A stretch of 37,268 bases of DNA from Anaerolineae bacterium (GCA_027036755.1 JALWDV010000417.1:1-37268), one strand, 5' to 3'. Counted from the stretch's first letter, positions 28,436-29,151 are shown. The notes: a model not told the origin generated them from the letters alone. Program-made: numbers and translations.

Positions 28436-28768
28436 ATGGCTATCAATAACGAACAGACTCTCAGCCAAATTCAATCGCTGGCCCGACTTTACCAAACAGG
28501 CTATCGCAGTCCCGTCATCGACGCCTCTATTCAGAAACTCATAAGTCTGGAGCGAGCGCGGCTTCAACGCGAGCTGGAGGAGTTACAGGAACATTTGCAT
28601 GCCTTCGAAGAGGAATACAATCTATCTTCTGAAGAATTTCATCGTCGATTTCAGAGAGGCGAACTGGGGGACGATGCGGATATGTTTGAGTGGGATGCGT
28701 TTTATCAAATGATGGTGACTGTTAGAGAACAACTGGAAACGCTTCAGCCGGAAACAGCTTCGCAGTGA
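28436..28768 (+). CDS. Small acidic coiled-coil protein, putative antitoxin/partner of the downstream gene
   Basis: About 110 aa counted from ATG 28436. An alternative in-frame start exists at ATG 28373. It has heptad-like ERARLQRELEELQEHLHAFEEEY and an acidic tail motif ELGDDADMFEWDAFYQM. No HTH is evident. A GTGA overlap links it to the next ORF. Confidence 0.5.
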   Translation: MAINNEQTLSQIQSLARLYQTGYRSPVIDASIQKLISLERARLQRELEELQEHLHAFEEEYNLSSEEFHRRFQRGELGDDADMFEWDAFYQMMVTVREQLETLQPETASQ

Positions 28769-29151
28769 ACGCTTTCGACTATCTCGAATCAGTCAAACTT
28801 GCGTTGGCTTTGAGTGACATAGTGCAAACTGTTCAAATCGTTCGGGAATATAGCCGGGAAAGTCATGGCTTTTTCCGCGCACGATTGGAATTGAGAAACG
28901 GTGACTTCTTGGAGGTTTCCGAATTCTTTGTTGCCCAGGATGACGAGATTCATATCTTGCAATATCGTTATCAATGGATGGATGGCGCTCGGAAGCAGTT
29001 GCGAAAGCGTTGGGACAATGCAACGCATCACCCGGAACTGGATAACTTCCCCCACCATGTCCATGTGAAAGCAGATCATGTGGTCATGCCCGGCCAAGCA
29101 ATGCATATCGGTCTGCTTCTCGATATGCTCCAAGAAGAGCTAGAGGACTGA
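28765..29151 (+). CDS. DUF6516 / TumE-annotated-family-like protein (putative toxin component)
   Basis: 128 aa. The motif YRYQWMDGARKQLRKRWDNATHHPELDNFPHHVHV matches my recollection of the (R/K)(W/Y)DNAPHH-x5-FPHHKH signature of that family. This is recalled, not searched. Confidence 0.5.
   Translation: MNAFDYLESVKLALALSDIVQTVQIVREYSRESHGFFRARLELRNGDFLEVSEFFVAQDDEIHILQYRYQWMDGARKQLRKRWDNATHHPELDNFPHHVHVKADHVVMPGQAMHIGLLLDMLQEELED

Follow-up and report, generated by a model that had tools for sequence, protein, structure and literature searches.

Positions 28,436 to 29,151 of a 37,268-nucleotide stretch of DNA from an Anaerolineae bacterium (GCA_027036755.1 JALWDV010000417.1:1-37268; this whole stretch is hereafter called the window) carry two small coupled genes, which we identify as tumA and tumE of the TumE-TumA toxin-antitoxin (TA) superfamily (Durairaj et al., Nature 2023, PMC10584680). 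We consider it very probable that the pair is a type II TA module of this superfamily, carried as a cassette that runs from promoter to stop codon and sits in the 5′ end of a gene for a DegT aminotransferase. The original prediction, made from the sequence of the window, had placed two open reading frames (ORFs) here and had quoted one motif from each product. The ORF coordinates, the strand, the GTGA overlap of the two genes and both motifs, namely RWDNATHHPELDNFPHHVHV at residues 82-101 of the 128-residue TumE and ELGDDADMFEWDAFYQM in the 110-residue TumA, are as it claimed. In the overlap, which is 4 nt long and occupies 28765-28768, the stop codon of tumA meets the start codon of tumE. The features of the locus are the following.

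27655..28251, + strand: Bac_transf sugar transferase gene, the left neighbour (Pfam PF02397, E 7e-55)
28244..28306, + strand: relic of a DegT-type aminotransferase gene start, about 15-20 codons, with a TTG start and containing ...PQPRLYLSPPHMPG
28263-28303, + strand: left copy of the direct repeat, inside the relic
28346..28354, + strand: extended -10 promoter-like element TGGTATAAT, near the left end of the cassette (sequence inspection)
28436..28768, + strand: tumA, long-form TumA antitoxin, 110 aa, ATG start
28765..29151, + strand: tumE, TumE/DUF6516 toxin, 128 aa, GTG start
29162..29202, + strand: right copy of the direct repeat, which is the 5′ end of the intact aminotransferase gene
29158..30285, + strand: intact DegT/PglE-type aminotransferase gene, the insertion target (Pfam PF01041, E 1e-105)

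The surroundings of the cassette consist of polysaccharide genes, including those for an epimerase, a glycosyltransferase, a sulfotransferase, the sugar transferase, the DegT aminotransferase and a PglF-like dehydratase. According to the composition profile, the G+C content rises from about 47-50% to about 63% near 29150, at the start of the aminotransferase region.

A TumE protein and its long-form TumA partner

The attribution of the 128-residue product to the DUF6516/TumE family was confirmed by searches with hidden Markov models, which did return a TumE match. The protein scores 78.4 bits against Pfam PF20126, well above the gathering score of 23.4 (E 4.2e-22), and the match spans residues 42-124 of the protein and positions 2-78 of the 81 in the profile. 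It also matches NCBIfam NF045777 ('toxin TumE') over nearly its full length (59.4 bits, E 3.3e-16) and the PADLOC model PDC-M44B (E 1.1e-16). Furthermore, the TumE alignment profile, compiled from 31 sequences (the window protein and 30 relatives from the loci found here), aligns over 118 columns with a RefSeq protein annotated 'toxin TumE' (hhalign 99.6%). The RWDN...H...FPHHxH motif and the acidic residues of the family are present in the window protein, and all eight invariant residues (E53, Y67, R82, D84, H88, P96, H98 and H100) are kept. By these profile and alignment comparisons, the 128-residue protein is a member of the TumE/DUF6516 family.

An AlphaFold2 model built with the 31-sequence alignment (pLDDT 96.4, pTM 0.88) places a helix at residues 3-16, seven strands, and a second helix at residues 115-127. 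According to PMC10584680, the fold of the family consists of two helices packed on a seven-stranded antiparallel sheet and has no relative in the Protein Data Bank (PDB); the predicted structure of the window protein is this fold. A Foldseek search of the PDB with the model found nothing resembling it (best match E 0.03, TM 0.33), and a sequence search of the PDB gave no match. A solved structure or a known nuclease fold for TumE was sought by these two routes, and none was found.

The upstream partner had been described as an unconventional, acidic coiled-coil protein with no visible helix-turn-helix (HTH). The acidic, helical and HTH-less parts of this description stand. The protein has a pI of 4.57 (21 D+E against 10 K+R) and is predicted to be entirely helical, with helices at residues 3-20, 26-61, 65-73 and 81-102 (AlphaFold2, pLDDT 80). 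Pfam holds no family for it and returned sub-threshold noise only. A hidden HTH, a ribbon-helix-helix or another known antitoxin fold was considered and ruled out, given the noise in Pfam, an empty PDB search and a best Foldseek E of 1.0. The word "unconventional" has to be given up. The protein matches NCBIfam NF045776 ('antitoxin TumA') with an E of 1.4e-11 and 44.4 bits over residues 50-102 (profile positions 18-70 of 76), and 20 out of 20 members of the partner alignment match the same model. The PADLOC model PDC-M44A covers the same residues (E 2.2e-12, read in a library that has no curated cut-offs for the PDC-M44 models), and the partner profile aligns with WP_179070367.1, a RefSeq 'antitoxin TumA' from a Nostoc plasmid (hhalign 94.7%, E 6e-8). 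In addition, BLASTP aligns the window protein with a 66-residue TumA of a locus-linked genome (E 4e-10) through the pattern FE..Y.(L/I).SE(E/D)F..R...G..GD..D..EW, and this short TumA itself scores 115 bits, above the NCBIfam cut-off. The tail that had appeared conserved is indeed conserved, but it is not distinctive, because it is the core motif of TumA itself, FExxYxLSSEEFxxRFxxGELGDDADMFEW, at residues ~57-86.

Seventeen close homologues of 94-131 aa (most of them 103-110) begin at the equivalent methionine, with 'MAV-SxQTL', and the ATG at 28436 is therefore considered the real start of tumA. The long form is composed of the core (residues ~47-102) and a helical N-terminal extension of about 32 residues, and roughly the first 45 residues of the protein fall outside the NCBIfam model. 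Judged by its profile matches, the 110-residue partner is the long form of the normal TumA antitoxin of the family. In RefSeq, a 76-residue form is named TumA, and a 108-residue form on a Pseudanabaena plasmid is a 'hypothetical protein' beside a 'DUF6516 family protein'. A profile search found at least 681 clusters of long TumA proteins at 90% identity, and essentially all of them are unnamed.

On the earlier reading, the pair may be a variant TA or defence module, in which an unrelated coiled-coil protein outside the canonical partners would have been taken up by TumE and would neutralise it in a new way. The lack of a Pfam family and of an HTH in TumA, a fold unmatched in the PDB, the N-terminal residues outside the NCBIfam model and the RefSeq label 'hypothetical protein' for this length class are all in keeping with that proposal. 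However, the C-terminal two-thirds of the protein are homologous to TumA by three independent profile comparisons (NCBIfam, PADLOC and hhalign), no part of canonical TumA is more conserved than the motif thought to be distinctive, and the same type of partner accompanies TumE in 45 of the 57 loci described below. We therefore regard an unrelated partner as very improbable. The earlier statement that HTH antitoxins are the usual partners of TumE finds no footing in PMC10584680, which describes mostly uncharacterised partners and one remote RelB homologue.

Pairing, conservation and proposed function

The genome of the window contains three TumE genes, and a partner of this kind lies upstream of each. 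When one genome was scanned per species, 57 loci that encode a homologue of the partner were identified, in Chloroflexota, Desulfobacterota, Chromatiaceae/Competibacteraceae, Cyanobacteria, several candidate phyla and one archaeon. A TumE-like ORF lies directly downstream and on the same strand in 45 of them, where tumE is intact in 34, fused or extended in 2, and truncated or split in 9. Among the other 12 loci, one has a second pair nearby, and 11 are orphans or lie at contig ends. Homologues of the two genes are thus regularly co-located, and together with the TumE match this co-location favours a standard TumA-TumE (TumAE) pair in the window.

About one in five long-TumA genes, such as those at L083 (83-394), L042, L054, L062 and others, has no downstream tumE and represents an orphan antitoxin, and one such orphan directly precedes a tRNA-guanine transglycosylase gene. 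In a Desulfobulbaceae metagenome-assembled genome (MAG), a natural in-frame TumA-TumE fusion (L047, 2983-3633) no longer has the stop codon of tumA or the ~20 codons with which tumE begins. Another TumAE copy in the genome of the window (L003, 3-625) adjoins a VapC/Phd-like TA pair, and a copy in a MAG named Nitrospiraceae (L080, 526-1213) adjoins a RelE/HTH_3 pair; small TA cassettes cluster together. Downstream of a PglF-like gene in L024 (2721-3841), a HicB-like gene comes after a TumA gene whose tumE is truncated, and the units are separated by direct repeats of ~80 nt, an arrangement that indicates that TA cassettes stack between repeat copies.

The window was compared with L079, a contig from a metagenome in which the gene order is the same and the identity is ~92%. 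Relative to L079, the dN/dS ratio is 0.15 for tumA and 0.04 for tumE, two values behind which there are few substitutions. An element with the sequence TGGTATAAT, a perfect extended -10, lies at 28346-28354, 82 nt upstream of the tumA ATG, and is identical in L079, while the adjoining relic of the aminotransferase gene drifts (91% identity, under the 96-97% of the cassette). The pattern TGnTAnnAT occurs within 135 nt upstream of tumA at 15 of 58 loci, compared with 2% of control windows (p 5e-12), and because of this enrichment an own promoter would appear to be a trait of the family. A generic scan for -35 and -10 boxes reported no promoter at 28346-28354, since a -35 box is missing there. 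The earlier view of a coupled two-gene module, probably with its own promoter, is borne out by the GTGA overlap and by this element, and the cassette probably has an extended -10 promoter of its own, as predicted from the sequence. No RNA element upstream of tumA matched Rfam, and folding gave no sign of a structured leader (z-score -0.47, nothing unusual).

These observations also bear on whether the cassette could be a decaying, non-functional remnant. In its favour are the truncated or split tumE genes in 9 of the 45 homologous pairs, the 11 orphans among the 57 partner genes, and the origin of the last tumE codons in flanking DNA (see below). In the window, however, both ORFs are full length for their families, the invariant TumE residues are all kept, dN/dS is 0.04-0.15, and the promoter element has been conserved beside a drifting relic. 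In our opinion, decay is a most improbable explanation for this copy, in which both genes appear to be under purifying selection.

According to PMC10584680, six gammaproteobacterial TumE proteins are toxic in Escherichia coli, growth is restored by the cognate TumA, and one of the six lowered the incorporation of 35S-methionine. The assayed TumA proteins were inferred to be 76 to ~109 aa long from the lengths of the synthetic-gene fragments in that study. By homology to the assayed members, TumE of the window would arrest growth by inhibiting translation, and it may be an RNase that uses a cluster of Glu, Arg, Asp and His residues (E53, R82, D84, H88, H98 and H100). TumA would bind TumE through its conserved C-terminal core, and a TumA helix, GELGDDADMFEW, placed over the His cluster of TumE could neutralise the toxin by occluding its active site. 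The GTGA overlap would couple the translation of the two genes, and their transcription would probably start from the extended -10 promoter of the cassette.

Some findings weigh against this assignment of function. Both proteins fall below the equivalog cut-offs of their NCBIfam models, TumE with 59 bits against 90 for NF045777 and TumA with 44 bits against 100 for NF045776, and the pair therefore belongs to a divergent subfamily, distinct from the tested one. In the N-terminal third of TumA, neither a recognisable domain nor a DNA-binding motif was seen with Pfam, the AlphaFold2 model or Foldseek, and the literature searched gives no experimentally tested member of the long-TumA subfamily. 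In addition, the RNase activity of TumE has been proposed but is unproven even for the assayed members (PMC10584680); the earlier statement that the biochemical activity of such a toxin is not established was correct.

Compared with the described superfamily (PF20126, NF045777/NF045776), the window pair has the same toxin fold and histidine-rich motif, the same antitoxin-first bicistron of small proteins, and the same partner core motif, FExxYxxxSExFxxRxxxGxxGDxxDxxEW. It differs in its scores below the equivalog cut-offs, in a TumA of 110 aa with a helical N-terminal extension of ~32 residues as opposed to a model of 76 positions, and in a host outside the gammaproteobacteria, from which the assayed members come. 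In common with the type II modules of the RelBE type, it has an acidic antitoxin gene that lies upstream of, and is probably translationally coupled to, the gene for a small toxin predicted to target translation, and one TumA type is a remote RelB homologue (PMC10584680). However, no RelB or RelE similarity was detected in the window pair with Pfam, NCBIfam, a PDB sequence search or Foldseek, and TumE has a fold of its own.

A role in defence is possible because both proteins match the PADLOC phage defence candidate (PDC) system PDC-M44, component A with an E of 2e-12 and component B with an E of 1e-16, over the same residues as NCBIfam TumA and TumE and with the genes adjacent. The pair might then serve mainly as an anti-phage abortive-infection module, in which TumE is freed from TumA on infection and translation is shut down, a role compatible with that of a TA module. 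PDC systems were put forward on the ground that they lie embedded in BREX, DISARM or type I restriction-modification (RM) loci (bioRxiv 10.1101/2024.01.29.577857), and on a Pseudanabaena plasmid a close homologous pair has a DNA methyltransferase and a PIN protein as neighbours. However, PDC systems are candidates without experimental test (bioRxiv 10.1101/2024.01.29.577857), PDC-M44 was not found by name in the literature, and the window copy lies among polysaccharide genes, with no defence genes next to it. A search of 50,697 phage records found no TumAE homologues, a result that counts neither for nor against a defence role. We think it rather unlikely that defence is the main function, and we continue to regard the pair as a type II TA module.

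Anatomy of the insertion junction

The pair had also been placed at an insertion junction, and the flanking sequences agree. A 41-nt direct repeat (28263-28303 and 29162-29202) with a spacing of 899 nt brackets the cassette; its copies are 85% identical and correspond to codons ~3-16 of the aminotransferase gene, including PRLYLSPPHM. The left copy lies in a relic whose TTG start is fused to the stop codon of the sugar transferase gene, the two codons overlapping, and in which PQPRLYLSPPHMPG follows with nothing recognisable beyond. In blastx, PRLYLSPPHMPG of the relic aligns with PRLYLSPPHMSG of the aminotransferase, with no further match downstream. The 3′ end of the sugar transferase gene and the relic are collinear with the relative G013 (L015, 3-116, 74%). 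The insert of ~0.9 kb contains tumA and tumE alone, and no transposase, integrase or other mobile element, and no Rfam match, was found inside it. On its right side, homology with the same-genus, TumAE-less relative G010 starts at 29137-29139, inside the last four codons of tumE, and the flanking DNA therefore supplies the tumE stop; these last ~4 codons and the stop lie within sequence common to the cassette-less relative. The aminotransferase gene is 84-92% identical in same-genus relatives, with homology beginning at ~29139-29169. The TumAE pair is a compact cassette, from promoter to stop codon, probably inserted at the 5′ end of the DegT aminotransferase gene, with a relic copy of that gene start to its left.

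Two further candidates in this interval were rejected. A longer aminotransferase relic in 28304-28435, indicated by a 17-nt match to 29482-29498, was dismissed and the match put down to chance, given that blastx shows the first ~14 codons only. A "bridging ORF" of 174 aa, which starts at TTG 28244 in frame with tumA, is not conserved; it is open for 85 codons here and for 23 in L079.

The same site holds other inserts in relatives. In G010, the spacer consists of a degenerate gene-start relic and a hairpin like that of a miniature inverted-repeat transposable element (MITE), and a tblastn search found no TumAE remnants in it. The hairpin ends (gtaactactaa ... ttagcagttac; L017, 2470-2613) match the termini of a MITE-like element at 32333-32522 of the window, which indicates that this element moves within the genus and has come to lie at this junction. 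In three genera, a DUF3800 gene lies between a copy of the aminotransferase start (115-131 nt) and the intact gene (L014, 2715-3700, in G001; L015, 74-1064, in G013; L016, 1476-2436, in G016). The right end of this insert is conserved (AGTATACG...ATTTGTCAAGGATAATCGC) and abuts the same aminotransferase nucleotide (CGCCTCTACC), and the layout is what a single-crossover (Campbell-type) integration of a circle with an internal 5′ gene fragment would give. The site in G016 also has a second, divergent two-gene pair on the minus strand (L016, 651-1327), which encodes a 98-residue coiled-coil protein ('LLEWRAINDEL') and a 126-residue protein that barely passes the Pfam TumE threshold (25.5 against 23.4 bits), and HicB-like genes occur at the site in G009 and G007.

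From 27500 to 29250, a block comprising the sugar transferase gene and the TumAE pair is 96-97% identical to L079, compared with 88-92% in the flanks, and dS is 0.10-0.15 in the block versus 0.39-0.43 in the flanking genes. This difference suggests a more recent exchange for the block than for the genes around it. Separately, between 30250 and 30750, at the 5′ end of the PglF-like gene (30357...), the identity to L079 is 69-80%, far under that of its surroundings.

The repeat may be read in a second way, as the scar of a module swap and not as a target duplication made by the inserting cassette. A foreign block of low G+C content, containing the glycosyltransferase, the sulfotransferase, the sugar transferase and an aminotransferase start of its own, would have been joined to a resident TumAE pair and aminotransferase, which needs one homologous and one illegitimate crossover. 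The exchanged block just described is in line with such a swap, as are the G+C shift at 29150 and the divergence of the two repeat copies, 15 nucleotides in every hundred. The left copy is nearer to the gene of a relative (97% to L014, 3675-3707) than to the right copy beside it; it has an operon-type TTG start fused to the sugar-transferase stop, whereas the right copy has a different, native leader in common with G010. In addition, among 40 relatives none combines the same left neighbour with an empty site, G010 having a different insert at this very point. Against a swap stand the much cleaner TumAE insertion at the same gene start in L025, the enrichment of flanking repeats around TumAE in general, and the nearness of the right repeat to the tumE stop, all of which are described below. 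We consider a module swap possible, with rather less than an even chance.

Repeats around other cassettes and the mode of insertion

Direct repeats flank TumAE cassettes at other loci as well. Searching 400 nt on each side in the 37 loci with enough flank, we found a direct repeat of at least 40 bits around the cassette in 9, compared with 5 of the 124 pseudo-cassettes that were placed at shifted positions in these loci (odds ratio 7.7, p 6e-4); a cross-locus control had its 95th percentile at 24 bits. The repeat-flanked loci are partly related to one another (three Chloroploca genomes; L055 and L058) and represent ~8 independent events, including that of the window. Most of the repeats, whose length is 29-404 nt, are gene ends, and the right one begins no more than ~25 nt from the tumE stop in 7 of 8 loci flanked in this way.

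The clearest case is the Anaerolineae locus L025, where the 5′ end of a DegT gene has again been duplicated (139 nt at 91%) and the left repeat stops 16 nt before TGGTATAAT. Its empty site is preserved in G059, G066 and G050, in which the sugar transferase, acetyltransferase and aminotransferase genes are uninterrupted and the target is present in a single copy. In Chloroploca, the 3′ end of a DegT gene has been duplicated around TumAE. In a Chromatiaceae genome, the duplication involves a whole small gene beside an ORF of ~425 aa (neither was scanned against the family library), and in the archaeon it involves, as judged by eye, the apparent 3′ end of an ORF beside a glycosyltransferase-like ORF.

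Insertion that duplicates a long stretch of target has been described for RM gene complexes (Nobusato et al. 2000, in Furuta, Abe and Kobayashi, NAR 2010, PMC2853133), and the bracketing of the TumAE cassette resembles it. In so far as that account describes them, the RM insertions also involve a small addiction unit without a transposase or integrase, bracketing direct repeats of more than 30 bp that vary in length and are copied from the local target, and single-copy empty sites in relatives, which for TumAE were shown for the L025 cassette. By comparison with what is described there, the window differs in that its cargo is a TA pair and its repeats are short (41 nt) and 15% diverged.

By analogy, TumAE cassettes could be recombinase-free mobile units that enter the ends of host genes with a target duplication of 30-400 nt and are protected as inserts by addiction, a proposal that we advance tentatively and to which we give rather less than an even chance. 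Such a unit would begin with the extended -10 promoter, finish at the stop codon of the toxin gene and repeatedly target genes of polysaccharide loci, for example those for DegT aminotransferases, entering by the same unexplained route as has been proposed for RM units. Addiction to the TA pair would guard an otherwise unstable, repeat-flanked insert from loss, and the window cassette would be an older, partly eroded example of such an insertion.

By itself, the pair adds little, because it belongs to a family already described in 2023 and extends that family to a long-antitoxin subfamily; the interest lies more in the mode of insertion of the cassette. Annotation pipelines leave the long-form pairs as "hypothetical protein + DUF6516", and if the long TumA class were given a name, hundreds of genes that now lack annotation could be recognised as antitoxins. 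The clean ends of the cassettes and the recurrent duplication of gene ends, in four bacterial phyla and an archaeon, provide a testable case for the movement of TA modules without a recombinase, a matter that concerns RM systems as well.

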